Virus record (IMG/VR): IMGVR_UViG_2778261164_000001
Coordinates: 20,803-84,802 of that record
DNA length: 64,000 bases
DNA from: a virus
Lineage: Duplodnaviria; Heunggongvirae; Uroviricota; Caudoviricetes
Strand: one strand, 5' to 3'
The translations under genes and the position numbers were made by a program. The notes under the pieces are model-generated. The model was not told the DNA's origin. It saw only the letters and a list, made by a program, of their open reading frames with translations, and made no database searches. Below are positions 33,658 to 45,460 of this stretch, in pieces (position 1 is the stretch's first letter; each line of letters begins with the position of its first letter).

Positions 33658-33879
33658 ATGGGATATTCAGCTGCTAAAGTGTCCACTCATATTGAGCTTG
33701 AGAAAAACCGTGGTTACTGGCGGGCAAAAGGGTTTGATCGTGATAGTTGTCAACTGTCATTATCGCGCGGTGAAGAGAAAATAGAACGCACGCGCGGTCG
33801 CTGGCGTTTCTATGACGAGAACCATAAACAGGTAAAGGCAGAGCCGATCCTGTACACTTTACTTAAAACCATTATCTGA
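33658..33879 (+). CDS. hypothetical small protein in the cre leader
   Basis: 73-aa ORF ending 8 nt before the cre ATG; may instead be untranslated leader. Confidence 0.3.
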   Translation: MGYSAAKVSTHIELEKNRGYWRAKGFDRDSCQLSLSRGEEKIERTRGRWRFYDENHKQVKAEPILYTLLKTII

Positions 33880-33886
33880 GTGTTAA

Positions 33887-34918
33887 ATGTCCAATTTACT
33901 GACCGTACACCAAAATTTGCCTGCATTACCGGTCGATGCAACGAGTGATGAGGTTCGCAAGAACCTGATGGACATGTTCAGGGATCGCCAGGCGTTTTCT
34001 GAGCATACCTGGAAAATGCTTCTGTCCGTTTGCCGGTCGTGGGCGGCATGGTGCAAGTTGAATAACCGGAAATGGTTTCCCGCAGAACCTGAAGATGTTC
34101 GCGATTATCTTCTATATCTTCAGGCGCGCGGTCTGGCAGTAAAAACTATCCAGCAACATTTGGGCCAGCTAAACATGCTTCATCGTCGGTCCGGGCTGCC
34201 ACGACCAAGTGACAGCAACGCTGTTTCACTAGTCATGCGGCGGATCCGAAAAGAAAACGTTGATGCCGGTGAACGTGCAAAACAGGCACTAGCGTTCGAA
34301 CGCACTGATTTCGACCAGGTTCGTTCACTCATGGAAAATAGCGATCGCTGCCAGGATATACGTAATCTGGCATTTCTGGGGATTGCTTATAACACCCTGT
34401 TACGTATAGCCGAAATTGCCAGGATCAGGGTTAAAGATATCTCACGTACTGACGGTGGGAGAATGTTAATCCATATTGGCAGAACGAAAACGCTGGTTAG
34501 CACCGCAGGTGTAGAGAAGGCACTTAGCCTGGGGGTAACTAAACTGGTCGAGCGATGGATTTCTGTCTCTGGTGTGGCTGATGATCCGAATAACTACTTG
34601 TTTTGCCGGGTCAGAAAAAATGGTGTTGCCTCGCCATCATCCACCAGCCAGCTATCAACTCGCGCCCTGGAAGGGATTTTTGAAGCAACTCACCGATTGA
34701 TTTACGGGGCTAAGGATGACTCTGGTCAGAGGTACCTGGCCTGGTCTGGACACAGTGCCCGTGTCGGAGCCGCGCGAGATATGGCCCGCGCCGGAGTTTC
34801 AATACCGGAGATCATGCAAGCTGGTGGCTGGACCAACGTAAATATTGTCATGAACTATATCCGTAATCTGGATAGTGAAACGGGGGCAATGGTGCGCCTG
34901 CTGGAAGATGGTGATTAG
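33887..34918 (+). CDS. cre: Cre tyrosine recombinase
   Basis: 343-aa product MSNLLTVHQNLPALPVDATSDEVRKNLMDMFRDRQAFSEHTWKMLLSVCRSWAAWCKLNNRKWFPAEPEDVRDYLLYLQARGLAVKTIQQHLGQLNMLHRRSGLPRPSDSNAVSLVMRRIRKENVDAGERAKQALAFERTDFDQVRSLMENSDRCQDIRNLAFLGIAYNTLLRIAEIARIRVKDISRTDGGRMLIHIGRTKTLVSTAGVEKALSLGVTKLVERWISVSGVADDPNNYLFCRVRKNGVAAPSATSQLSTRALEGIFEATHRLIYGAKDDSGQRYLAWSGHSARVGAARDMARAGVSIPEIMQAGGWTNVNIVMNYIRNLDSETGAMVRLLEDGD-type sequence recognised as Cre, with the cognate loxP upstream. Confidence 0.98.
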   Translation: MSNLLTVHQNLPALPVDATSDEVRKNLMDMFRDRQAFSEHTWKMLLSVCRSWAAWCKLNNRKWFPAEPEDVRDYLLYLQARGLAVKTIQQHLGQLNMLHRRSGLPRPSDSNAVSLVMRRIRKENVDAGERAKQALAFERTDFDQVRSLMENSDRCQDIRNLAFLGIAYNTLLRIAEIARIRVKDISRTDGGRMLIHIGRTKTLVSTAGVEKALSLGVTKLVERWISVSGVADDPNNYLFCRVRKNGVASPSSTSQLSTRALEGIFEATHRLIYGAKDDSGQRYLAWSGHSARVGAARDMARAGVSIPEIMQAGGWTNVNIVMNYIRNLDSETGAMVRLLEDGD

Positions 34919-35411: not shown

Positions 35412-35428
35412 ATTGCTCTAATTGATTG
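35412..35428. promoter_or_regulatory. C1 operator with adjacent -10 (TATAAT at 35431-35436)
   Basis: ATTGCTCTAATTGATTG followed by CTATAAT. Confidence 0.6.
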
Positions 35429-35493
35429 CTATAATTGAGCCGCAGTTTTTGTCAACTACGAAGACGTTGCCATTACTTCACTCCTTGACATCA

Positions 35494-35523
35494 TTGGCGG
35501 CCATTAGGCCGCCTTTTTTTTGA
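35494..35523 (+). terminator. hairpin + T8 (terminator or attenuator) just upstream of ref
   Basis: GGCGGCC-ATTA-GGCCGCC followed by eight T residues. Confidence 0.5.
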
Positions 35524-35527
35524 CCAT

Positions 35528-36088
35528 ATGAAAACAATCGAACAAAAAATTGAACAGTGCCGCAAGTGGCAGAAGGCAGCCAGAGAACGAGCGATCGCTC
35601 GGCAACGGGAGAAGTTGGCTGATCCGGTCTGGCGAGAATCTCAATATCAGAAAATGCGGGATACTATCGACCGCCGTATCGCTAAACAGAAAGAACGCCC
35701 ACCAGCCAGCAAAACGCGGAAAAGCGCGGTAAAAATAAAATCTCGTGGCTTGAAGGGGAGAACACCAACGGCGGAGGAACGGCGCATCGCCAATGCTCTT
35801 GGCGCTCTCCCCTGCATTGCCTGCTATATGCATGGAGTAATATCTAATGAGGTGTCTCTGCACCATATCGCCGGTCGTACCGCGCCGGGTTGTCATAAAA
35901 AGCAATTGCCACTTTGTAGATGGCACCACCAGCATGCAGCACCGGCTGAAGTAAGAGCAAAATACCCCTGGCTGGTCCCTGTTCATGCCGATGGTGTGGT
36001 TGGAGGCAAGAAAGAATTCACCCTGCTGAACAAGTCAGAGATGGAGTTACTGGCTGACGCCTATGAGATGGCAAACATCATGCACTAA
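35528..36088 (+). CDS. ref: recombination enhancement function, HNH endonuclease
   Basis: 186 aa; basic N-terminus and HNH-like core (CxxC...HH...CxxH: CIACYMHGVISNEVSLHHIAG...CRWHHQH). Confidence 0.85.
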   Translation: MKTIEQKIEQCRKWQKAARERAIARQREKLADPVWRESQYQKMRDTIDRRIAKQKERPPASKTRKSAVKIKSRGLKGRTPTAEERRIANALGALPCIACYMHGVISNEVSLHHIAGRTAPGCHKKQLPLCRWHHQHAAPAEVRAKYPWLVPVHADGVVGGKKEFTLLNKSEMELLADAYEMANIMH

Positions 36089-36277
36089 TAAATATATTAT
36101 TTTTAATGATAAATGATTGACAACTGACAAGTGACTTCAGTCAGAATCATCACACGCCCGGTACGGATGGATCCCTTTTCAAATATTCCATGGACGGCAC
36201 AGTCTGAGTACCGGGCGCTACCTTCAGTTGTATTGCTAAGCCGCCGCTGGTGGCTTTTCTTTTTTGTAGGGGGCGCT

Positions 36278-36919
36278 ATGGATAAGAAAATATGCGTTGT
36301 TTCGATGAGCGTCGGCAAACCGGCGTCAATGACTGCTGCATGGATCAATAACGAGCTGATAATGGCTGAGCGGACCAGCTACCCTGAACGCCGCCGCGAC
36401 ATGGAACTCCAGCTGCTGCGCGAATTGCGAGAAAAAGAGGAAAAGGGTTTTATCGTGCTGGTGGAAGAGGAAAACAGCTTTATTACTGGTCGAGTTGGCC
36501 AGCGTGTAAGGTTGCGCGATCCCTTCATGAACGGCAGGCCGGTACTAATTGAGGCAATGCAGATTTATAAGGAGCTAGAACGCCAGAAAGCAATCAAGTT
36601 ACCGCGCAAGGAATCCGGCAAATACATCCTCCACCAAAGCATCTTCGATTCCGAACACGATAAAAAAGGCGATGAATTTTTCAACATCAACTGGAGCGAA
36701 ATAACGACAGAGCATGTTCTGACGTTACTATGTTGCTTTGCGACGGAATACAACAACGTTGCCAGCGCCGACTACATCAGGGCAATGGTTGGAGAAATTG
36801 ATGCCCGCCAAGAACCGTCGTTACTAAGCTCCCTTGTGAATATAATTCAAGCTACTCATGAAATGACCGCACGGAAAGTGCCTCAAGGTTCATTAACCGG
36901 CAGAGATAATTATCTTTAA
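36278..36919 (+). CDS. mat: protein at the mat position
   Basis: ATG at 36278 with AGGGGG RBS (track ORF from 36131 trimmed); 213 aa; positional assignment only. Confidence 0.45.
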   Translation: MDKKICVVSMSVGKPASMTAAWINNELIMAERTSYPERRRDMELQLLRELREKEEKGFIVLVEEENSFITGRVGQRVRLRDPFMNGRPVLIEAMQIYKELERQKAIKLPRKESGKYILHQSIFDSEHDKKGDEFFNINWSEITTEHVLTLLCCFATEYNNVASADYIRAMVGEIDARQEPSLLSSLVNIIQATHEMTARKVPQGSLTGRDNYL

Positions 36920-36961
36920 ACTTCTTGGGCGCTAACTATGCGCCCACGCCCATTACATTAA

Positions 36962-37912
36962 TTAATCAATAAATACACGGAATGGCTCAAGCATCCCTTC
37001 AGGATCTTTATCCTCGTCACCAAGTGATATTAGTCTTCTGGCGAGTAGTTTTACGTCATCATCATCTTTAATGAAGCCAACCTGATCATTATTAAAATAG
37101 ATATCGATTATTTTTAGGATTTGCTCTTGTGTAAAATGATTGAATTTTAATAACTTTGCTACAACTCGATGTGTTGTGGCAAAACTGCCTGAGCGGCGTA
37201 ATTCATCTATAGTGAAATTAACTTCCATTTCCGCTAAGTTACTGGCTTGAGGAAAGTGCTCACCTATAAACTCTGATAAGCGGGCATAGATATGTGGTTC
37301 TGAATCTTTCTTCTTTTTCCACTCGTACTTCAAATACTCATTCATATCATCCTTTATAAAGGCACTTTTATAATCACCATCTTCAGTTATAATGTATATA
37401 TCCTCTCCGTTTGGTATCGCCTTTAGCAAACACTCCCAATTGACTGCATCACCATATGATTTATTTTTACCCGGAGGGTTGCCAAGATCGAATCGGCGTT
37501 TCCCTTTTTCTATTGTTTCATCATCAGCCTCTATCTTAGACGCTGCATCAAAAATCCTTTTAATTACAACATCGGCAGCTAAAGACTCTTCTTTAAATAA
37601 GTTCTGTATATCGGTAATAATTTCATTCTTTAGCCGACTAGCTTCTATAACCTTATCATTAAATAGTGAATGTTTTTCATGCTGCCTGAAAATCTGTGGT
37701 AGCGCGGGCTTGTAGTCTTTTGCAATTTCCTTTATGGTTTCAGAGAGAACTTTAGAACGATTTCTCCAGAACTCATTCACTAAAAGTTCTGGCAACCAAA
37801 GTTTTAAACGACCATATTGATGTAAGGCAAATACTTTATCTAGCTCATCTAGTTTATCCTTACCCATTCGATAAAATTCCAAATATAGATTTGTATCAAT
37901 AAAAACATTCAT
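36962..37912 (-). CDS. PIN-like nuclease domain protein with a C-terminal domain of unknown function; candidate defence/abortive-infection cargo
   Basis: 316 aa; N-terminus MNVFIDTNLYLEFY, later YGDAVNWECLL and IYIITEDGDY give the conserved acidic PIN residues; GGA RBS and TATAAT upstream; AT-rich relative to its neighbours (by eye). Confidence 0.7.
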   Translation of the reverse strand: MNVFIDTNLYLEFYRMGKDKLDELDKVFALHQYGRLKLWLPELLVNEFWRNRSKVLSETIKEIAKDYKPALPQIFRQHEKHSLFNDKVIEASRLKNEIITDIQNLFKEESLAADVVIKRIFDAASKIEADDETIEKGKRRFDLGNPPGKNKSYGDAVNWECLLKAIPNGEDIYIITEDGDYKSAFIKDDMNEYLKYEWKKKKDSEPHIYARLSEFIGEHFPQASNLAEMEVNFTIDELRRSGSFATTHRVVAKLLKFNHFTQEQILKIIDIYFNNDQVGFIKDDDDVKLLARRLISLGDEDKDPEGMLEPFRVFID

Positions 37913-37973
37913 ATCACATCCTAATTATAAGTAATTTAGGCCACTCTAAAAAATAAAGTGGCCTAATAAGAAA

Positions 37974-38222
37974 TCAATCAGCATTCAGAAGCAATGCGTT
38001 ATCTATGATGATCTGCTCCCATTCTTCGAATGCCCGATCGCGGACACCTTGGGGAACACTGTTAGTTTTGAAATCGACGACCGTCCGCCATTTCCCGTCC
38101 GGGCGGTACATGCGCAGAGCTTTACTTCCCCCTTCCCTGCGCACCTCAACGTTATGCTTGTCAGCAAACTCTTGTAATGCTCGTAGCGTCCCATGCTTTA
38201 CTGTGTAGTATCGCTTTTTCAA
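37974..38222 (-). CDS. lxc: small basic protein at the lxc position
   Basis: 82-aa ORF overlapping the ulx stop; positional assignment downstream of darB-ulx. Confidence 0.6.
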   Translation of the reverse strand: MKKRYYTVKHGTLRALQEFADKHNVEVRREGGSKALRMYRPDGKWRTVVDFKTNSVPQGVRDRAFEEWEQIIIDNALLLNAD

Positions 38223-38659
38223 GTTTTCTCTCCAGCCTGTGCCAAGGCTTCAACTTCCAAATCGTAAGACTCAAACTCATAGTCCTGGTCGTCAACTTCT
38301 TCAGGCACTGGCAGTAAATGCCAGGCTGAGTATATCTGACCATTATCAAAACGCTCCTGGCTGTAGAGCGTCGCGGCTATGAGTGTTAGCGCCGGGCGGT
38401 CATAACGGTAAATTTTGCGAACGTCACGGTCAACGAGACGACCGAAATTACCATAACCGCGCTCCAGTAATAATTTTTTAATTTCCGGCCAGTATGGACC
38501 ATAGCTGCGGTACAGGCGGGGATTTTTCAGTAATCGCCCGCGTAGCCCTGACAGGAAGAAATCAACGTATTCGTCTTCTGTCTTTCCTAACAACGCCGTA
38601 CGCAGTACCGCCTCAAGATATGTTTTATTCGGTTTTATTGTATCAGATAGTGTGGCCAT
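38219..38659 (-). CDS. ulx: protein at the ulx position (Dar system associated)
   Basis: 146-aa ORF immediately downstream of darB on the same strand. Confidence 0.55.
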   Translation of the reverse strand: MATLSDTIKPNKTYLEAVLRTALLGKTEDEYVDFFLSGLRGRLLKNPRLYRSYGPYWPEIKKLLLERGYGNFGRLVDRDVRKIYRYDRPALTLIAATLYSQERFDNGQIYSAWHLLPVPEEVDDQDYEFESYDLEVEALAQAGEKT

Positions 38660-38692
38660 ATTATGCGACGCCCGGCGAACCGGGCGCTCCTG

Positions 38693-41600
38693 TTATGCGT
38701 ATTGTTGGATGACGGCCAGAACGTCCGCCACGTTGTGTTTTGTCTCGATAATCCACCAGTTACCCGGGAAATCGCTGTTCTTTGCCTTCGCTGGCAGCCA
38801 GCGAGCGCCGAATTTCGCCTTGATTGCGTCTTTCGCACGGAAAAGAATGCCTTTCATGCCGGACGCCTCCTGAAGCCCAAATACCTCGCCAGCGGCGAAT
38901 TTTGGTGCGTACATCATCTTCAGGTCGGCGGTGGATACGCGATAATTCAGACCAAGAGACTGAGCTATGCTGGTGGCATCACCCTGTATTGATGATAACT
39001 CTTCTTGTTTCTCGTTTCTGGCGGCAATTTCTTCCTCCGAGATGTTGCCAAGGGCCAGGTTTATCCGATCAGCGTCTGCCTGTTTCTCTTCATCGGTGCG
39101 CCCGGAAAGTACCGTGTTAATTCTGTGCAATATCTCCACATGATTCTTGCGCATGCTGAGTAATTCCGGCGTAACCTCGTTAAGGTCCACCAGCCCAAGG
39201 ATGGCAAGGTCAGTAAACATTGATACCAGGTTGTAGGTCATGCGATAGCTGAGTTGGCCATAGGCTGATGGCAACTGCACCGCATCCATTTTATAGGCAT
39301 CCATAAATTTAGAGCCGTCGTTTACGACATCCGCAATTGCCGGTGTGATTTTTCCTGTGGTGGCGGCCTCCCTGATTGCTGTTACCCACGATTGAGTCAG
39401 CACGGCGACTGCATGATTCAGATTGGCTTTCCGTTCTGCTGCAATGCGCGCACTTGCTGCGTCCATTGCCTGCTTGATCTCGTCTTTATTACTGTAAATG
39501 CCAATGGTGCCAAACTGTGCTGTGGTGATCTCATAATCTGACGCCCGGAACTCATTGGTACCGAAAATGGCATTGGTGACTTCAAGTTCAGAATCCCCGT
39601 TACGAGTAGCCCCCTGGCTTGTTTTTTCCGGCATTCTGGCGATCGCATCCGCTATTTTCTCCTGAATTGCTTCAGGGGATAGCGTATCTCCGTATGACGC
39701 GATTACATCGCCATAATTGGAGCCAAACAGTTCAACCAGGAATGTTTCTGCCGAACGGATCTGGCGGTTATTCCCTTCCGACATCATACTAAGCACCCAT
39801 TTTGCAATTGACGACTTCAGCGCGCCGTCACGGCGATCCGGGTAAACCGCATGCTTCAGTGGGTCCGTATAGGTACCAACAAAATCAATGCTATAGCCTG
39901 ACTCTGTAGTCTGAACGCCGTATGAGTCAGTGATTTTGATCATGCCGCGCTGCTGGAAACGGTAGAAATCGTCACAGGAAATGATGTCGTTAATCCCGGC
40001 GATGGAGACGCCGCCACTGATTTTCTGCATAACAGCATCTTCATCGGGAGTTACATCAACCTGTTTATCCAGCGTCTTCACATCCCAGTTACCCGATTTG
40101 GTGCCTTTGAAGGTAAAGATGATCTCCACGTCTGCGCGCTGGCTGTCGAAGTCCAGCGACTTAATGCGAACGATATCACCGGCACAATCGTAGTATTGGC
40201 CTACACGCCATGAGCGATCGCCGATAACAAGGAACTCACTCGCATGATTAACCAGGTCAGGATCAACATCCAGAATGCCTTTATTTATTGCATCCTCCAC
40301 CAGCGGGCGCAGGCGTTTGATATCCGTCGCGGCCTTCTGAGTACGGTTCAATAATTTCTCATAGCGGGAGATGGCTTGAGAGATATTAGCCTTGCGCTGA
40401 ATGGCACTTTTCAACGACGCGCGATACTGTGCTAACAACGTACGGTCTGTGTGATGGACGCTACCCCAGCGGGCTTTCCAGTCTGCGTTATCAGCTGCTT
40501 TGGCCTTTACCGCCTGTTTGAATTTAGCTACCTCGGCGGTGGTCTTTTCAAGTTCCGCTTTGCTTCGCTCTAATTCAGCGGTAAGTACCTCCACATCCTC
40601 GCCAGCTGCGTGCTGCGCCTTGATGTAGTTCTGAAGGTCGATAGTAGCCTGTTCTTTCTGGCGAGCGCGTTGCGCGGCTTTCGCCTTATCCATTTGAACC
40701 TGCATCATTGCCAGACGTTCGCCATCATCCTTAGCGGTATACATCTGCATTTCGATCATATCGTTGGCGTCGGCGTTCTCCATTTCTGACTTATCTGAAC
40801 GGAGGATATCGGAGATCCAGCCTGCTTTACGCTTCAGCGTCTTCAGTCGGTATTCATCGAAAGAACCCTTGCCGCAGTAGTAGTGAACGCGAACGCTTGC
40901 ACGGTTGGAGCCAACTCGGGCACCGCGACCGTTACGTTGTGCGATACTGGCTGGAGTCCACGGCAACGTCAGATGATGGATGTCAGTCGTTCCTCGATGC
41001 AGGTTGATACCCACCTCTGCCTTTTTGTTGCAGATGATGATCGGAGTCCGGCCCTCCTGGAAGTCTGCTGCAATCTTTTCCAGACCGCCCAACGACATTT
41101 CATTTTGCTGCGCGATATAGGCGTCATACAGAGCCATTTGCTCGTTGTATTTCGCTATCTGTGCATCTGTTGGTTCATCCGGTAACTCTTTCGGCGGTTT
41201 AACCGCTTTCAGTTTCTTACCGGTTTTACCTGCCTCGGCAACCGTCTGAGCATTCAGGATCCCCACCTTTGAAGGTTCAAGGTTAAGAGCATTGCAGATA
41301 ATGCGCTTGAGCTTCTGGTGCTGCGTTTTTTCGTCCGTGAAGATGATTTGCTTACCTTCCGGGAAAAACTCCTTCAGCGTGGCGATCAGCTTCGCGTATT
41401 TGGGTGTAACGGGGTGAGTTACGGTCTGTTCGTCAATGCCAAAATTGGCCAGGCGCTTATTCACTTCCTGCTCGAACGCTTCCGGAACCTGCAACTGAAT
41501 AAACTCGCCCTTATCTATCAGGGAGTATTGCGATTGCTGCGTGATAGAATCATCACTGTCGTCGTCTTCGCTGGTGGCTTGTTTAGGCAAACTGTCCGCC

Positions 41601-44600
41601 AGCTGCTGCACCGCATCGGCGTACTCCGGCAGGAAACGATAGGTGATCCGGCGATAGTACAGGTCCATGTCAGTACATACGCGGTCCATATCCCTGATTA
41701 TTGAGAAGATCGGACGGGCTTTCTCGTGCTCAATCACGCCGTCTTCATTGACCGAGGACGTTACGCCATTGTTGGCTTTGGCTGCCGCTTCCGCCTGCTG
41801 ACGCAATTCTTCATACGCCGCCAGTTGTTCTTCAGTAAGTGGTGCATCCTGCTGGTGTTCGTCCAGCTCCGGGATCTCCACGGTATCCTTAACGTCTTCC
41901 GCCGTTTTAAGCGTTACCCAGCGATGGAATATACCGCGCAGCGCATCAAGGTTTTCAAAGCCCACCAGCGCCATTTTTTCTTCAACTTCACCGCTGATTT
42001 TCTGTACCGTTTCCAGCCTGGTCTTGCCGAAGAATTTAACGAAGTCATCAGGACTGTAGATCCCCATCTTCTGCCAGTATTCCTTCGGCAGAACATGAGA
42101 AAGCATGTTGTATGCATCGATCGGGGTGTTAACGACTGGCGTTGCAGTCAGGAGAACCGGTCCGCGCCCGCCATTCTTTTTCATCAGGTACGCGTTTTTG
42201 ATTGCCATATCTCGCGCCGATTGCGCCACCGCGCTGGTGGGCAGATAGGCCAACTGTGACGCTTCGCGACCATTTTTATAGCTATTGCGGTAGTTGTGGC
42301 CTTCGTCAACGATCACGCTATCGAAGCCCATATCCTCAAAGTACGGATACTTATCTGATTTTTCGGTGCCGGTATCTGAATACTCCGACAATATACGGCG
42401 ACGCGCGGCCTCTTTGCGGTGGGAGTCGGAGTCCATTGCGCTGGCTACACGCCCGGCGGCAACAAAGTCCAAAAGCATATCTTGAGCATGCTCATCTACG
42501 GTTTCATCGCGTAGAGGAAGGCGGAAGTATTGTTCTTTGGTGAGCACTACAGCACGGTAATTTGAGTGCGGGATAGCGTTTATCCGCGCCGTGATAGTGG
42601 CTTCATCAGCCAGCTTAAGGGCATCGCGCATAACGGGAGTGCCATCTGCACCAACGACAGGTTTACCGTTCTCATCGAGTACCGGCACCTGGCGAATCTG
42701 ATCGCCATCCATCAGCACATCAAGACCGACAAACAGGTAGTTACTGAATGCCTCTTCACTCAGGAACTCTTTTGCCTCGTAATACCAGTTTTCCAGCACT
42801 GATTTAGGTACTACATACAAAGTTCTGGTTGATCGGCCATTCTCATAGTTGAACGCCTCAAGCGCCAGCGCGGTCGTCGTTTTACCCAGCCCGGTGCCGA
42901 AGCCCAGGATGCCGCGCCCATCTTCGGACAGTCGGCGTACCTCGCTATTCTGGTAATCAAATGGCTGGCGCTTACCGCTTAATCCCTTCAACCCAAGCGG
43001 ATCGCCAGAGTGTTCATACGGGATATTGCTATTGAACACATCGTTGTATTTGGCAACCAGTTCATCGTAGCGATCGTGCGTCTTGATCCACTTATTGAAC
43101 TGGTCCTCAAGCAGTGCCATCTGCTCGCGGTAGCCGTTCGCCGTCGCGCTATCTTTGCCACCGATACGCGCACCATTGAGATACTTTTCCAGCTGTGCCG
43201 GGAACCCGGTCGCGTTTTCTCCTGATTTACGGTCCCACTCGTAGCGGATCTCGCCTGTTTCTTTATCCTTGCGCTGGACGACACCGTATCGGTGCCCGAC
43301 GAACAGGCCATCACCACCGTGATAGGTGTCAGAAACCATTTCGTCGCCTTCCAACTGCACTGACTGCACATAGCGCAGATCCGGATAGCCGTTTTCCTGC
43401 AAAAACTCCAGAATGACGGAACGGTCGAACCAACGGCTATTGAGCTTAAACCGGATATTCTCTGCTGGCGTCTTGATGCGCTTCTCTTCGATCGCTGCCA
43501 GCTGATTAAGGACGTTGTTCTTTACTGGACCGTCGGGGAGCGTGGCGAGGAATTCCTGTTTTGGAGCCACTATCTCGTTAATGTCGCCGCTGGTGGCGCG
43601 GGCGAACGGAACAATCCCGCCATACGGTGAAACCGCAATGCCAGGGGTGCTGGCCAATAAATTAAGCAACTCGTCATCACTGGCTGGCAGTTCGCCGGTA
43701 AACGCAAGGCGGAAATCATCGAGCTGGATTGGATCGCGAGTGAGATCACTGTAGAGATAACGCAGGGTGTCCTGATAGCTGGTGGAGTCATAACTGGCGC
43801 TGGAATCATGCGTAACCAGTTTTCCTGTCAGCTCGTCAGAAATAGTGCCATCCAGCTTAATTGCACCACGGAAAGCAAACCAGGCGCGCGCACCGCTCCC
43901 CGATAATTTCGCTATCGGACCGCGACCGGGGTTACCAAAACGGTCAATCTCTGCCTGCAAACGGGATACCAGAGAAAGGCGCTGCTGTTCGATTTGTTCA
44001 GCACTATGCCCGGCGGCCTTCATGTCCTGATATTCAATTAACATCCGGCCAATCATCGCCCCGCGATACAAGCGTTCACGGTATTTTTCAGGCTGGCTGT
44101 TAATCCAGTCCACCAGCTGCACCATATCGTCGCTGATTGATGTGGTGTACTTATCGCGGACATTTGCCATCTGGGTAAATGTCATACCGAGACGGCCTTC
44201 TGTTGTAGTCAGGTTACGCTGAAGAGCCTCCCAGCTGTCCGCGCCATAACTGGCAACATCAATCTTCAGCTCCTTCCCGGCATCAGATTCAATCCAGCGA
44301 CCACCAGCATATTTTTGCCATACGCCATTAATCAGGCGCATTTCCCCCTCATCAACAACGTCTGCGGTCGGTGACGGTTCAGCCATATCGAGCAAAGACC
44401 AGTCGATACGACTTTCGAAACGATGAATCAGCTTCGCTTTAAGAGCCTGGTTATCAATCTGCCCGTCGGCACGAACCTCAATACGCCCCTGGAAGCCCTT
44501 TTCCTGGGTACCATGAACAAACCGGCGGCCGTCCTTTTCAAACCACTTGCCAGAAATAAACGTTGGACAAATCACATTTGCCGATTCAAGAGTGCTTTCA

Positions 44601-45460
44601 TCCACCAGGGGGATTTTCTCAGCCATCTCTGCCGGATGCTTGCGCATCAGCACCACATCAACGACCGTACTGGTCCCGTTTGCGTCAAAAGTACCGGTAG
44701 GCAAGCGGTGGGCACCAAGAAATTCAGCTTTACGGGATAGGCGCAGGCGCAACCGCTTCATGTTTGAACCTGAAACAATGGACGGCGGCACAATCACACA
44801 CATGAATCCGCCTGGCTTTATCTTGTCCAGCATGCGGAGCATGAAGTAAGACCCCATATCCGTTTCTTCTGCGTAAGGCTTATCGATGTTGCGTGTGTTA
44901 TCACGACCGCCGAACGGAACGTTACCCACAACATGGTCGAATGAATCGTTAGGTGTGCTTATAGCCAGCTGTTCGAACGGGGAAATCTGTACGCTGTCTT
45001 CCGGATGTAACAGCTGGTTTATACGACCGGAAACACTGCTGATCTCAGTCGCGGTCATCACCGTACCAACCGGTTTTGTCTCATTAAAAACGCCGGTGCC
45101 CGCCGATGGTTCCAGAGTGTTACCTACGTCCGCGCCATAGAGCTTCATGATCTCCCAGACGCCTTCAGCGATAGGCTTTGGTGTGTAATATTCGGAGACG
45201 GACCCGCCAATGCCGCCTTCACCGGTGTACCCAGCCAGGATCTGGCGCTGTTCATCTGTCAGTGTCGCGCCGTCCACCAGTGAATTAAGCAAATCTATCG
45301 CCTTCTGATTCGCCTCCCGGCGCAGTCGGTCATAGCTTTTGCCTTCCACCTTTTCCACGCCGTATCTAATCGGCGCTCGGTGAGATGTTATTGCCCTAAT
45401 GTATTTCAATATTTCGCTGACACTTGAACAGCGAAACACCCCCATAGATAGCTTGTTCAT
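38693..45460 (-). CDS. darB: DarB antirestriction protein: N6-adenine methyltransferase fused to an SF2 helicase
   Basis: 2255 aa; SAM-MTase region with motif IV variant GNVPFG; helicase motifs ILGFGTGLGKTTTA (Walker A) and DEGHNYRN (DExH). Confidence 0.9.
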   Translation of the reverse strand: MNKLSMGVFRCSSVSEILKYIRAITSHRAPIRYGVEKVEGKSYDRLRREANQKAIDLLNSLVDGATLTDEQRQILAGYTGEGGIGGSVSEYYTPKPIAEGVWEIMKLYGADVGNTLEPSAGTGVFNETKPVGTVMTATEISSVSGRINQLLHPEDSVQISPFEQLAISTPNDSFDHVVGNVPFGGRDNTRNIDKPYAEETDMGSYFMLRMLDKIKPGGFMCVIVPPSIVSGSNMKRLRLRLSRKAEFLGAHRLPTGTFDANGTSTVVDVVLMRKHPAEMAEKIPLVDESTLESANVICPTFISGKWFEKDGRRFVHGTQEKGFQGRIEVRADGQIDNQALKAKLIHRFESRIDWSLLDMAEPSPTADVVDEGEMRLINGVWQKYAGGRWIESDAGKELKIDVASYGADSWEALQRNLTTTEGRLGMTFTQMANVRDKYTTSISDDMVQLVDWINSQPEKYRERLYRGAMIGRMLIEYQDMKAAGHSAEQIEQQRLSLVSRLQAEIDRFGNPGRGPIAKLSGSGARAWFAFRGAIKLDGTISDELTGKLVTHDSSASYDSTSYQDTLRYLYSDLTRDPIQLDDFRLAFTGELPASDDELLNLLASTPGIAVSPYGGIVPFARATSGDINEIVAPKQEFLATLPDGPVKNNVLNQLAAIEEKRIKTPAENIRFKLNSRWFDRSVILEFLQENGYPDLRYVQSVQLEGDEMVSDTYHGGDGLFVGHRYGVVQRKDKETGEIRYEWDRKSGENATGFPAQLEKYLNGARIGGKDSATANGYREQMALLEDQFNKWIKTHDRYDELVAKYNDVFNSNIPYEHSGDPLGLKGLSGKRQPFDYQNSEVRRLSEDGRGILGFGTGLGKTTTALALEAFNYENGRSTRTLYVVPKSVLENWYYEAKEFLSEEAFSNYLFVGLDVLMDGDQIRQVPVLDENGKPVVGADGTPVMRDALKLADEATITARINAIPHSNYRAVVLTKEQYFRLPLRDETVDEHAQDMLLDFVAAGRVASAMDSDSHRKEAARRRILSEYSDTGTEKSDKYPYFEDMGFDSVIVDEGHNYRNSYKNGREASQLAYLPTSAVAQSARDMAIKNAYLMKKNGGRGPVLLTATPVVNTPIDAYNMLSHVLPKEYWQKMGIYSPDDFVKFFGKTRLETVQKISGEVEEKMALVGFENLDALRGIFHRWVTLKTAEDVKDTVEIPELDEHQQDAPLTEEQLAAYEELRQQAEAAAKANNGVTSSVNEDGVIEHEKARPIFSIIRDMDRVCTDMDLYYRRITYRFLPEYADAVQQLADSLPKQATSEDDDSDDSITQQSQYSLIDKGEFIQLQVPEAFEQEVNKRLANFGIDEQTVTHPVTPKYAKLIATLKEFFPEGKQIIFTDEKTQHQKLKRIICNALNLEPSKVGILNAQTVAEAGKTGKKLKAVKPPKELPDEPTDAQIAKYNEQMALYDAYIAQQNEMSLGGLEKIAADFQEGRTPIIICNKKAEVGINLHRGTTDIHHLTLPWTPASIAQRNGRGARVGSNRASVRVHYYCGKGSFDEYRLKTLKRKAGWISDILRSDKSEMENADANDMIEMQMYTAKDDGERLAMMQVQMDKAKAAQRARQKEQATIDLQNYIKAQHAAGEDVEVLTAELERSKAELEKTTAEVAKFKQAVKAKAADNADWKARWGSVHHTDRTLLAQYRASLKSAIQRKANISQAISRYEKLLNRTQKAATDIKRLRPLVEDAINKGILDVDPDLVNHASEFLVIGDRSWRVGQYYDCAGDIVRIKSLDFDSQRADVEIIFTFKGTKSGNWDVKTLDKQVDVTPDEDAVMQKISGGVSIAGINDIISCDDFYRFQQRGMIKITDSYGVQTTESGYSIDFVGTYTDPLKHAVYPDRRDGALKSSIAKWVLSMMSEGNNRQIRSAETFLVELFGSNYGDVIASYGDTLSPEAIQEKIADAIARMPEKTSQGATRNGDSELEVTNAIFGTNEFRASDYEITTAQFGTIGIYSNKDEIKQAMDAASARIAAERKANLNHAVAVLTQSWVTAIREAATTGKITPAIADVVNDGSKFMDAYKMDAVQLPSAYGQLSYRMTYNLVSMFTDLAILGLVDLNEVTPELLSMRKNHVEILHRINTVLSGRTDEEKQADADRINLALGNISEEEIAARNEKQEELSSIQGDATSIAQSLGLNYRVSTADLKMMYAPKFAAGEVFGLQEASGMKGILFRAKDAIKAKFGARWLPAKAKNSDFPGNWWIIETKHNVADVLAVIQQYA

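Follow-up and report, generated by a model that had tools for sequence, protein, structure and literature searches.

Cosus (Brc24) is a defence encoded by a single gene that travels as a mobile-integron cassette, with the protein ALG87191.1 encoded on plasmid pKAZ2 (bioRxiv 10.1101/2024.07.02.601719). It defends E. coli against T7, and this activity needs the PIN residues T12, D14, and D96 (bioRxiv 10.1101/2024.07.02.601719). A second one-protein system, the abortive-infection protein DARNA or PD-T7-3 (accession RCP48690.1), combines a HEPN RNase with an all-helical, HEAT-like C-terminus (Vassallo 2022, PMC9519451; bioRxiv 10.64898/2026.02.22.705581). DARNA forms a dodecamer that is activated by ssDNA presented by the phage SSB and cleaves the tRNA anticodon (bioRxiv 10.64898/2026.02.22.705581). 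In addition, the PADLOC profile PDC-S34 belongs to a set of 145 untested candidates obtained by "guilt-by-embedding" (Payne 2024, bioRxiv 10.1101/2024.01.29.577857).

The DNA analysed here, referred to as the window, is a 64,000-nucleotide stretch of a P1-like phage-plasmid (Salmonella Typhi), in which a cassette at 36920-37973 lies between mat and lxc and measures 1,054 bp from the mat stop codon to the lxc stop codon. Its sole gene, on the minus strand, encodes a 316-aa protein that joins an N-terminal PIN_12 domain to a C-terminal helical-repeat domain (C-domain); the combination is new, but it belongs to a known kind and introduces no new principle. This protein is probably a self-contained, single-protein defence of the abortive-infection type, directed against phages (or other mobile elements), that replaces the type III restriction-modification (RM) system in the mat-lxc hotspot.

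The mat-lxc slot and its occupants

The cassette is flanked on the left by cra (33658-33879), cre (33887-34918), c8 (between cre and ref), ref (35528-36088), and mat, which ends at 36919. On the right it is followed by the conserved C1 modulator gene lxc (37974-38222, minus strand, in the same orientation as the PIN gene), ulx (38219-38659), and darB (38693-45460). A preliminary description of this DNA had recognised the synteny with P1 on both sides and had placed about 5 kb of res and mod between mat and lxc in P1, with which the reference coordinates agree (mat 2716-3468, res 3544-6456, mod split by IS5 at 7652-8846, and lxc 9750-9998). The proposal that the PIN gene was swapped into this locus is in keeping with reference P1, from which the gene is missing and where EcoP1I res and mod, together with IS5, occupy its slot. 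The cassette had also been judged AT-rich by eye, an impression borne out by its GC content of 0.356, versus 0.463 in the 5 kb to the left and 0.512 in the 5 kb to the right.

In an alignment with the empty site of RCS47 (39 bp) and four other occupants, homology on the right stops exactly at the lxc stop codon (37974), while homology on the left decays within the 3' end of mat. This mosaic 3' end (36788-36919, plus strand), in which the last ~45 mat codons vary with the type of cargo, forms the left recombination zone. Among 709 P1-like plasmids, the slot is either empty or occupied by type III RM, CapRel-like, SIR2, DUF2971, or other genes, and the PIN gene is found in 22 (3%). The PIN gene is also present in 30 of 5,426 complete E. 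coli genomes and, within E. coli, is confined to P1-sized plasmids. A RelA/SpoT gene that matches PDC-S33 occupies the slot in phage SJ46 and in many plasmids, and DefenseFinder reports CapRel in P1-like elements; we take the SJ46 gene to be the published CapRelSJ46. Further occupants are SIR2/ThsA-like (PDC-S25) and DUF2971 (PDC-S31) genes. The slot qualifies as a cargo site, as its flanks are conserved, the low-GC DNA that they enclose is unrelated, and one allele is an empty site, and its alternative occupants, including EcoP1I, the SJ46 RelA/SpoT gene, and the SIR2 and DUF2971 candidates, identify it as a swap site and a defence hotspot. The same slot has been published as a variable low-GC region, named RD-1 (PMC6906374) or region 1 (PMC9603915), and its variability is therefore not new.

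EcoP1I of P1 and CapRel of SJ46 are validated defences that share with the PIN gene both the slot and the character of exchangeable AT-rich cargo, and CapRel further resembles the PIN protein in uniting effector and sensor in one protein. However, neither is related to the PIN protein in sequence or fold, and they act through DNA restriction and tRNA pyrophosphorylation, respectively. The PIN gene follows immediately after the lxc-ulx-darB anti-restriction operon and is read in the same direction, a location that could also fit an RNase that serves the P1-like element's own cycle, through host shut-off or transcript processing, or that takes part in counter-defence in the manner of the anti-restriction genes ulx and darB. 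The GNAT, EAL, and YaaC occupants of the slot, which match no defence model, are compatible with such a function. Nevertheless, it is very unlikely, given that the gene occurs in only ~3% of P1-like elements and is replaceable by unrelated genes or by nothing, that most of its relatives are found in non-phage contexts, and that its C-domain is common to TIR-fused proteins typical of host immunity.

The cassette gene and its expression signals

The PIN gene (36962-37912), a minus-strand gene for a 316-aa protein as originally described, is 951 bp long, with an ATG start and a stop codon at 36962-36964, and its product is identical in sequence to RefSeq WP_023153803.1. Full-length homologues of the 316-aa ORF amount to 157 matches, with identity down to 35%. 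Comparison with a 91%-identical P1-borne allele (WP_111952764.1) gave a dN/dS of 0.067 at a dS of 0.44. Moreover, the 22 plasmids and 29 genomes all carry the gene at full length, and its catalytic and motif residues are all intact. The PIN gene is under purifying selection, and pseudogene status was rejected on the basis of the dN/dS. A decaying or inert hitch-hiker with no current function, to which the AT-rich foreign DNA and the absence of a clear promoter might point, is extremely improbable, since the dN/dS largely refutes it and the intact residues and full-length frames also speak against it. A 107-aa antisense ORF at 37392-37715 found no support and is treated as spurious.

The search for a partner gene yielded no second plausible ORF of at least 20 aa in the cassette, in which the spacers measure only 42 and 61 nt. 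An Rfam scan of the cassette gave no RNA match, and the cassette contains no repeats; tandem or type III-TA-like repeats cannot fit into spacers of this size. The family of the PIN gene has itself been called mono-cistronic (PMC5499597). In comparison to VapC, a compact single-domain toxin of ~130-150 aa, the 316-aa protein is twice as long and is distinguished by an ~80-residue helical insert and the fused C-domain, and its gene has no adjacent, co-oriented VapB antitoxin gene. A classical VapBC module was rejected, as the cassette holds no antitoxin.

VapC-type PIN domains are well known as type II toxins, which favours a role in plasmid addiction, whereby the fused C-domain would act as an unstable cis-antitoxin, the PIN toxin would kill cells that have lost the P1 plasmid, and the cassette would replace res-mod in this capacity. 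The discussion of res-mod as an addiction module of P1 (PMC6906374) and the confinement of the E. coli PIN gene to P1-sized plasmids agree with this role. Addiction is quite unlikely, however, because the cassette carries neither an antitoxin gene nor an antitoxin RNA, homologues, close and distant alike, reside where addiction would be useless (integron arrays, defence islands, and chromosomes), and 97% of P1-like plasmids lack the PIN gene. Furthermore, P1 has an addiction system of its own, phd-doc.

Both of the palindromic hairpins said to bracket the cassette are real, with their coordinates (36926-36945 and 37933-37960) needing slight correction. The first, GGGCGC-N7-GCGCCC at 36927-36945, lies between the convergent mat and PIN genes and has a 6-bp all-GC stem and a 7-nt loop (dG -14.2 kcal/mol, z -3.8 on the plus strand; -15 kcal/mol, z -2.2 on the minus strand); it is likely a bidirectional transcript end. 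The second, at 37936-37966 on the minus strand, directly follows the lxc stop codon, ahead of the PIN gene, and consists of a 13-bp stem closed by a 5-nt loop (dG about -20 kcal/mol, z -4.9). This hairpin is specific to the PIN cassette, with different hairpins at the equivalent place in other slot occupants, and its predicted structure is terminator-like or attenuator-like.

The gene had been credited with its own ribosome-binding site (GGA) and a TATAAT promoter element. A Shine-Dalgarno-like AGGA (37922-37919, minus strand), read from the sequence, is indeed present 6 nt upstream of the ATG, as is a TATAAT hexamer (37929-37924, minus strand) that ends 11 nt before the ATG. However, the hexamer lacks an acceptable -35 element, a promoter scan upstream of the PIN gene returned no sigma-70-like site, and a transcript initiated from TATAAT would exclude the AGGA, so that the two cannot both hold as described. 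The hexamer is a doubtful promoter. As no convincing promoter was found, expression of the PIN gene in the lysogen is an assumption, with lxc being a possible source of read-through transcription. Of the 14 C1 operators detected in the window, none lies between 35428 and 45390, and direct C1 control of the PIN gene was rejected because operators are absent near the cassette.

The PIN_12 domain and the C-terminal helical-repeat domain

The PIN domain (37250-37912, minus strand; residues 1-221) is of the VapC type and contains a long helical insert that spans roughly residues 42-123. Residues 3-181 match the entire Pfam PIN_12 profile (PF16289, formerly DUF4935; positions 1-172 of 172) with 65.9 bits against a cut-off of 32 (E=7.6e-18). 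The PIN alpha/beta/alpha fold is present in the N-terminal region, and the PIN-like N-terminus of the preliminary description is confirmed as a genuine PIN fold whose acidic site, predicted to be catalytic, is intact. All 72 homologues retain the acids D6, E47, D114, D155, D178, and D180, and equally invariant are R50-N51-R52, R140, P146-P147-G148-K149, S152, G154, and E197-W198. The motifs FIDTN (4-8), GDAVNW (154-159), and IITEDGDY (174-181) occur as reported, with D6 and D155 invariant, whereas the third residue singled out, D181, is in fact a tyrosine, and the invariant acids there are D178 and D180. Profile searches, proposed as a check at the outset, returned neither a characterised housekeeping protein nor a validated defence model. 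An NCBIfam search assigned the 316-aa protein to no family, PHROGs matched it only to a family of unknown function, and no PADLOC model spans its whole length. Additionally, when the PDB was searched by sequence with profiles of the full-length protein and of the C-domain, and with the C-terminus of the TIR relative, there was no significant match and no DARNA chain.

The PIN protein resembles Cosus in its N-terminal PIN_12 domain, which covers the full profile in both (E=2.4e-36 in Cosus versus 7.6e-18), and in being encoded by a single gene without a partner on mobile cargo, with relatives of the PIN protein also found as integron cassettes. D14, D153, and D177 of Cosus correspond approximately to D6, D155, and D178. 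On the other hand, Cosus, a classical DUF4935 protein, is 382 aa long, and its ~200-aa C-terminal half is unrelated to the 95-aa all-helical C-domain and does not match PDC-S34. Furthermore, resistance to T7 is a measured phenotype of Cosus, whereas defence by the PIN protein is a prediction. Direct comparison of the two gave no match in tblastn (with the OCR'd supplement sequence), a probability of 0.1 in hhalign, and an E of 0.11 with the family HMM. Orthology with Cosus was rejected because all three comparisons failed, leaving shared Pfam PIN_12 membership as the sole link. Neither a 2026 domain-centric E. coli screen nor a chromosomal-integron screen mentions PIN or DUF4935 proteins.

The C-domain (36965-37249, minus strand; residues 222-316) comprises ~95 aa, is all-helical, and folds alone in prediction (pLDDT 95.8, pTM 0.87). 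Its conserved residues are S241, F244, T247, H/R248, N275, Q277, W/Y280, I281, D284, and D286; most relatives have W or Y at position 280, which is F in the P1-like plasmid allele. No Pfam family covers the C-domain, which is found in 1,345 representative clusters and is fused to TIR_2 in the protein P0208 and to a two-helix membrane segment in P0267. It is an autonomous, portable module common to different effector domains, and we propose that it serves as a sensor or regulatory module.

These fusions also bear on whether the PIN protein might be a direct, non-abortive exclusion nuclease, which would cut incoming phage or plasmid nucleic acid to protect the lysogen or to compete with other mobile elements, with the C-domain recognising the substrate and no suicide involved. 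PIN-like domains may also be DNases. Such a direct nuclease is nonetheless unlikely, as the TIR and membrane-spanning segments that bear the same C-domain are cell-killing effectors rather than cutters of invading DNA, and VapC RNase toxins give the best matches to the PIN domain.

The C-domain is clearly homologous to the C-terminus of PDC-S34. Residues 226-297 align with positions 298-369 of the 384 in this profile (E=1.4e-11), and the stretch ~298-372 is matched by 25 of 25 family members, the lowest E being 3.7e-16. Over its first ~290 positions, PDC-S34 has no match to the PIN domain and, thus, the N-terminal effector differs. Six independent C-domain proteins match the PD-T7-3 model in one register (positions 295/346-413/429), the matches being individually weak (E 0.001-0.009). 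In this register, F244, Q277, and W/Y280 fall at profile positions of about 359, 394, and 397, and the F/Q/W spacings (35 and 3) are the same as between the ssDNA contacts F368, Q403, and W406 of DARNA, whose ssDNA-binding site reads F...NQxYW, with residue numbers taken from the preprint. DARNA shares the one-protein plan of an N-terminal nuclease effector followed by C-terminal HEAT-like helical repeats. However, its effector is HEPN (Rx4H motif) and not PIN, its C-terminal part spans ~300 aa versus ~95 aa, and the C-domain family has H or R where DARNA has D372. In PADLOC, the N-terminal part of PD-T7-3 is unmatched by the PIN protein, and a large-database search with the wHTH and C-domain region of P0208, as a bridge to HEPN/DARNA-type proteins, gave no match.

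It is possible, if somewhat doubtful, that the C-domain is a portable infection sensor, a miniature of the ssDNA-reading claw of DARNA mounted on at least four killing modules (PIN_12, TIR, membrane-spanning helices, and HEPN in DARNA). It would then define an unrecognised superfamily of one-protein immune sensors with more than 1,300 representative clusters, in which the PIN version would abort phages whose SSBs expose ssDNA, and the host-like SSB of the P1-like prophage would keep the sensor silent.

Homologue neighbourhoods and the proposed defence

In a context survey of ten distant homologue loci, made without a statistical control, eight were located in defence islands, prophage ends, or integron cassette arrays, and two among housekeeping genes. 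One homologue lies between a type I RM system and HNH/Mrr/ScoMcrA nucleases, another adjoins Hachiman HamA/HamB, and a third overlaps a type IIG RM gene by 4 bp. Others adjoin EndoU or sit beside a MutH and methylase pair in a recombinase-bearing element. In a Vibrio integron array, and likewise in a Flavobacterium cassette array that also contains AbiGi, Zeta, and NERD, homologues form single cassettes. Slot swapping and the predominance of defence-island or cassette-array homologues support the earlier proposal of a single-gene anti-phage or abortive-infection candidate; the defence function, its trigger, its substrate, and the abortive outcome are inferred.

The abortive defence may proceed as follows. 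Production of the protein in the lysogen would most likely depend on read-through of the attenuating hairpin by transcripts of the lxc operon, and the protein would stay inactive until the C-domain senses an infection cue. By analogy with the related end of DARNA/PD-T7-3, this cue may be ssDNA exposed by the SSB of a foreign phage. Sensing would activate the PIN_12 nuclease, probably via a change in oligomeric state, and the nuclease would cut nucleic acid, most likely host or phage RNA (tRNA or rRNA), as VapC-type PIN domains do. The infecting phage would be stopped and the cell sacrificed.

The mat-lxc slot of P1 behaves like the defence hotspots of P2 and P4, and its uncharacterised occupants (YaaC and its partner, EAL, GNAT, and two unnamed gene pairs) are ready further candidates. 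If the PIN protein is a defence, a compact one-gene system of 951 bp joins the arsenal that P1-like phage-plasmids carry between E. coli, Salmonella (S. Typhi in this case), and Klebsiella, with consequences for phage therapy and for how phages compete. The shared C-domain would also make infection sensing by single-protein systems approachable: as the same small module is found on PIN, TIR, and membrane effectors, and probably in DARNA, one trigger could be tested across four outputs.

The mat–lxc slot and its cargo

The window matches a 97-kb unannotated plasmid, plasmid 1 (LT905089.1) of the Salmonella Typhi strain ty3-243, with 100% identity across the cassette and 99.6% across 3 kb. The backbone of this plasmid is of the P1 type, and the P1 synteny described earlier is present on both sides, with cra, cre, c8, ref and mat to the left (plus strand, as far as 36919), and lxc (37974-38222), ulx and darB (product of 2,255 aa) on the minus strand to the right. 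The P1 C1-operator consensus has 14 matches in the whole window at three mismatches or fewer (0.29 expected by chance), which at the sequence level confirms that this unannotated S. Typhi plasmid record has an intact immunity circuit of the P1 type; none of the 14 lies within 35428-45390. Reference P1 carries res, mod and an IS5 between mat and lxc (3469-9749), in agreement with the position given earlier for its restriction-modification genes. In the window, the 1,054 bp from the mat stop to the lxc stop (36920-37973) have a single reported ORF, the expected minus-strand gene for a 316-aa protein (36962..37912), and the AT-richness previously ascribed to this interval is reflected in a GC content of 0.356 versus 0.463 in the left 5-kb flank and 0.512 in the right one. 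A 107-aa antisense ORF inside the gene (37392-37715, plus strand) has neither homologues nor signals and is most likely spurious.

The cassette junctions were aligned with those of phage RCS47, whose slot is empty (mat and lxc 39 bp apart), and of four further occupants. To the right, homology breaks off precisely at the stop codon of lxc; to the left, it fades within the final ~130 nt of mat. Each aligned occupant comes with spacer DNA and a hairpin peculiar to it. The mat 3' end itself (window 36788-36919; last ~130 nt, ~45 codons) is mosaic, and each cargo type is accompanied by a distinct variant of the Mat C-terminus; recombination breakpoints thus lie inside mat, and Mat varies together with the cargo type.

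Of the 709 records of P1-like plasmids that match the flanks, 22 carry the PIN cassette, while in the rest the slot is empty or holds genes annotated as SIR2, RelA/SpoT, YaaC, DUF2971, EAL, GNAT or DUF4145, or larger inserts. PADLOC matches the SIR2 gene to PDC-S25 and ThsA, the DUF2971 gene to PDC-S31 and the RelA/SpoT genes to PDC-S33. Phage SJ46 has a RelA/SpoT gene at exactly this position, and a DefenseFinder survey of clinical P1-like elements reported type III RM, CapRel, dGTPase and PrrC. Taken together, these observations identify the slot as a hotspot for defence cargo. It has been published as 'RD-1' (PMC6906374) and as 'region 1, res-mod' (PMC9603915), with its low GC noted in both; neither mentions the PIN gene, and phage JL22, the subject of the latter, has this cassette with 98% identity.

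In phage vB_EcoM-673R5 (L002 1520-2619), the annotation divides the RelA/SpoT cargo into two ORFs of 182 and 180 aa that correspond to the N- and C-terminal halves of one PADLOC profile, PDC-S33; either a CapRel-like gene is split or frameshifted here, or the pair is an artefact of annotation or sequencing. Several other occupants (loci L019, L021, L022 and L004) match no PADLOC model. They comprise YaaC together with a partner of 169 aa; an EAL fragment of 149 aa, after which ~1.2 kb has no annotated genes; a GNAT acetyltransferase; and, in phage Ro157c2YLVW, two unnamed genes in divergent orientation. In view of what else the slot contains, these are further defence candidates.

The PIN_12 gene: domain, expression and selection

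Residues 3-181 match the full Pfam PIN_12 profile (PF16289, formerly DUF4935), scoring 65.9 bits where the cut-off is 32, with PIN_8 as an additional match, and both domains occur in all 120 homologues among the matches listed from a search that found 157. Across an alignment of 72 full-length sequences (33-95% identity), D6, N8, E47, R50-N51-R52, D114, R140, P146-P147-G148-K149, S152, G154-D155, D178, D180, E197-W198 and N275 are invariant. Because of the profile match and the invariant acidic positions, the PIN-like N-terminal region of the preliminary description is soundly assigned, and its catalytic site is intact. Two of the acidic residues named there, D6 and D155, are among the invariant positions; residue 181 is a tyrosine, and the third should read D178 or D180. 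A sequence search for a solved structure of the protein gave no detectable match. In the classification of PIN-like domains, DUF4935/PIN_12 is placed in the VapC group as a usually mono-cistronic family of unknown function (PMC5499597).

That a PIN_12 protein can serve alone as a defence follows from Brc24, or 'Cosus', a single-cassette PIN12 gene of mobile integrons, which confers complete T7 resistance that is >10^5-fold weaker with T12A, D14A or D96A (bioRxiv 10.1101/2024.07.02.601719). Residues 11-180 of Cosus (plasmid pKAZ2, ALG87191.1, 382 aa) match PIN_12 (E=2.4e-36). Direct comparison with the 316-aa protein detects no similarity, and their C-terminal halves are unlike, ruling out orthology. 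A direct exclusion nuclease is an unlikely alternative for the gene.

Hairpins do bracket the gene, at coordinates slightly different from those first proposed: a 6-bp GC stem at 36927-36945 (dG -14.2 kcal/mol, z -3.8) and a 13-bp stem at 37936-37966, just past the lxc stop codon (dG about -20 kcal/mol, z -4.9). The putative ribosome-binding site and promoter are likewise present as motifs on the minus strand, AGGA (37922-37919) lying 6 nt ahead of the ATG and TATAAT (37929-37924) ending only 11 nt ahead of it. A transcript started from TATAAT would therefore begin at or past AGGA, and the two appear too close to act as -10 element and ribosome-binding site on one transcript. The TATAAT has no -35 element, and a promoter scan found none upstream of the gene. 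As the gene is co-oriented with lxc with only a hairpin intervening, the simplest reading is that it would be expressed by attenuated read-through from the lxc operon. The 13-bp hairpin may be the attenuator that sets the amount of this read-through. It is very unlikely that the gene serves the phage-plasmid itself or acts in counter-defence.

Of 5,426 complete E. coli genomes, 30 have the gene, in every case on a plasmid of 90-108 kb rather than the chromosome. It is improbable that it encodes an addiction toxin. The E. coli copies form two allele groups (≥98.5% and ~91% identity), between which dS is 0.44 and dN 0.030. The resulting dN/dS of 0.067 demonstrates strong purifying selection and contradicts the idea of inert cargo, which is scarcely credible.

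A C-terminal domain shared among effectors

The C-terminal helical domain (C-domain, residues 222-316) is best conserved at S241, F244, T247, H/R248, N275, Q277, W/Y280, D284 and D286. Because these residues are polar or aromatic, the pattern suggests a predicted binding surface. A profile of the C-domain alone recovered 1,345 representative clusters from a library of 1.84 billion proteins (816 at E≤1e-10), the majority combining PIN and C-domain in ~320-340 aa. Other proteins join it to an N-terminal TIR_2 domain (P0208, E=3.6e-27) or to a segment with two hydrophobic helices (P0267). In P0190 (428 aa) and P0243 (404 aa), an extension of ~85-145 residues without a Pfam match follows, so the domain can be internal as well as terminal. 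In single-protein abortive-infection systems, a small module that recurs on nuclease, TIR or membrane-helix partners is typically the part that senses or regulates. In PADLOC, the 316-aa protein has a single significant match, to the final ~75 positions of PDC-S34 (E=1.4e-11), which all 25 C-domains tested also match; the PDC models are 145 untested candidates found embedded within known systems (bioRxiv 10.1101/2024.01.29.577857).

Five of the 25 C-domains also touch the PADLOC PD-T7-3 model. In individual scans, six independent proteins, the TIR and TM fusions among them, match its positions 295/346-413/429 in one register (E 0.001-0.009 each). PD-T7-3, renamed DARNA, consists of an N-terminal HEPN RNase and a C-terminal helical, Pds5-like domain whose distal part reads ssDNA through F368, D372, N402, Q403, Y405, W406 and N408; ssDNA on phage SSB activates cleavage of the tRNA anticodon loop, and F368A or W406A abolishes defence (bioRxiv 10.64898/2026.02.22.705581). 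In the common register, F244, Q277 and W/Y280 correspond to profile positions of about 359, 394 and 397, and their spacings of 35 and 3 are exactly those of DARNA F368, Q403 and W406 as numbered in the preprint, whereas the residue four after F244 is H/R248 in the PIN protein and D372 in DARNA. Homology of the two domains seems probable from these alignments; that they also share an identical trigger is less so. Position 280 (window 37073-37075) is F in this protein, Y in the 91% allele and W in 48 of the 72 relatives, and, as it aligns with W406, the F may alter ligand affinity.

Homologue neighbourhoods and the proposed role

Eight of ten loci with homologues at 35-67% identity, a small sample without statistical control, have a defence or mobile-element setting; the other two (L029 and L030) have solely housekeeping neighbours. 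The homologue lies between type I RM and HNH, Mrr and ScoMcrA-type nucleases in enterobacterial integrative islands, in a Pantoea prophage at its recombinase end, beside EndoU and DUF3800 in Salegentibacter, beside Hachiman in Serratia, and with MutH, a cytosine methylase and an AAA/DUF6414 pair in a recombinase-bearing element. In an uncultured genome (L013 7287-10990), with Fic upstream, it overlaps by 4 bp the stop codon of a gene for a 905-aa MmeI-like type IIG RM protein, suggesting an operon or embedding in the RM system. It is one cassette of a Vibrio europaeus array (L011 9835-11080), bounded by ~130-nt VCR/attC-like repeats of a 7-copy family, and a single cassette in a Flavobacterium sp. 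MAG (L027 7844-9129), whose array has at least 18 cassettes bounded by attC/VCR-like repeats of a family with at least 18 copies, alongside NERD, DUF3800, CAT, Zeta toxin and AbiGi cargo. So large a cassette array in a Bacteroidota genome is notable in itself.

With minor corrections the original observation stands, and the best-supported reading remains the one first proposed, a candidate single-gene nuclease defence swapped into the P1 defence slot, and the gene is probably an abortive-type defence. The domain combination is new and its kind already known, namely a one-protein effector-plus-sensor candidate immunity gene in a known phage hotspot; a specialist would not be astonished. Its value lies in a compact, directly testable candidate and in a portable C-domain that may bring PIN, TIR, membrane and HEPN effectors under a single principle of sensing.
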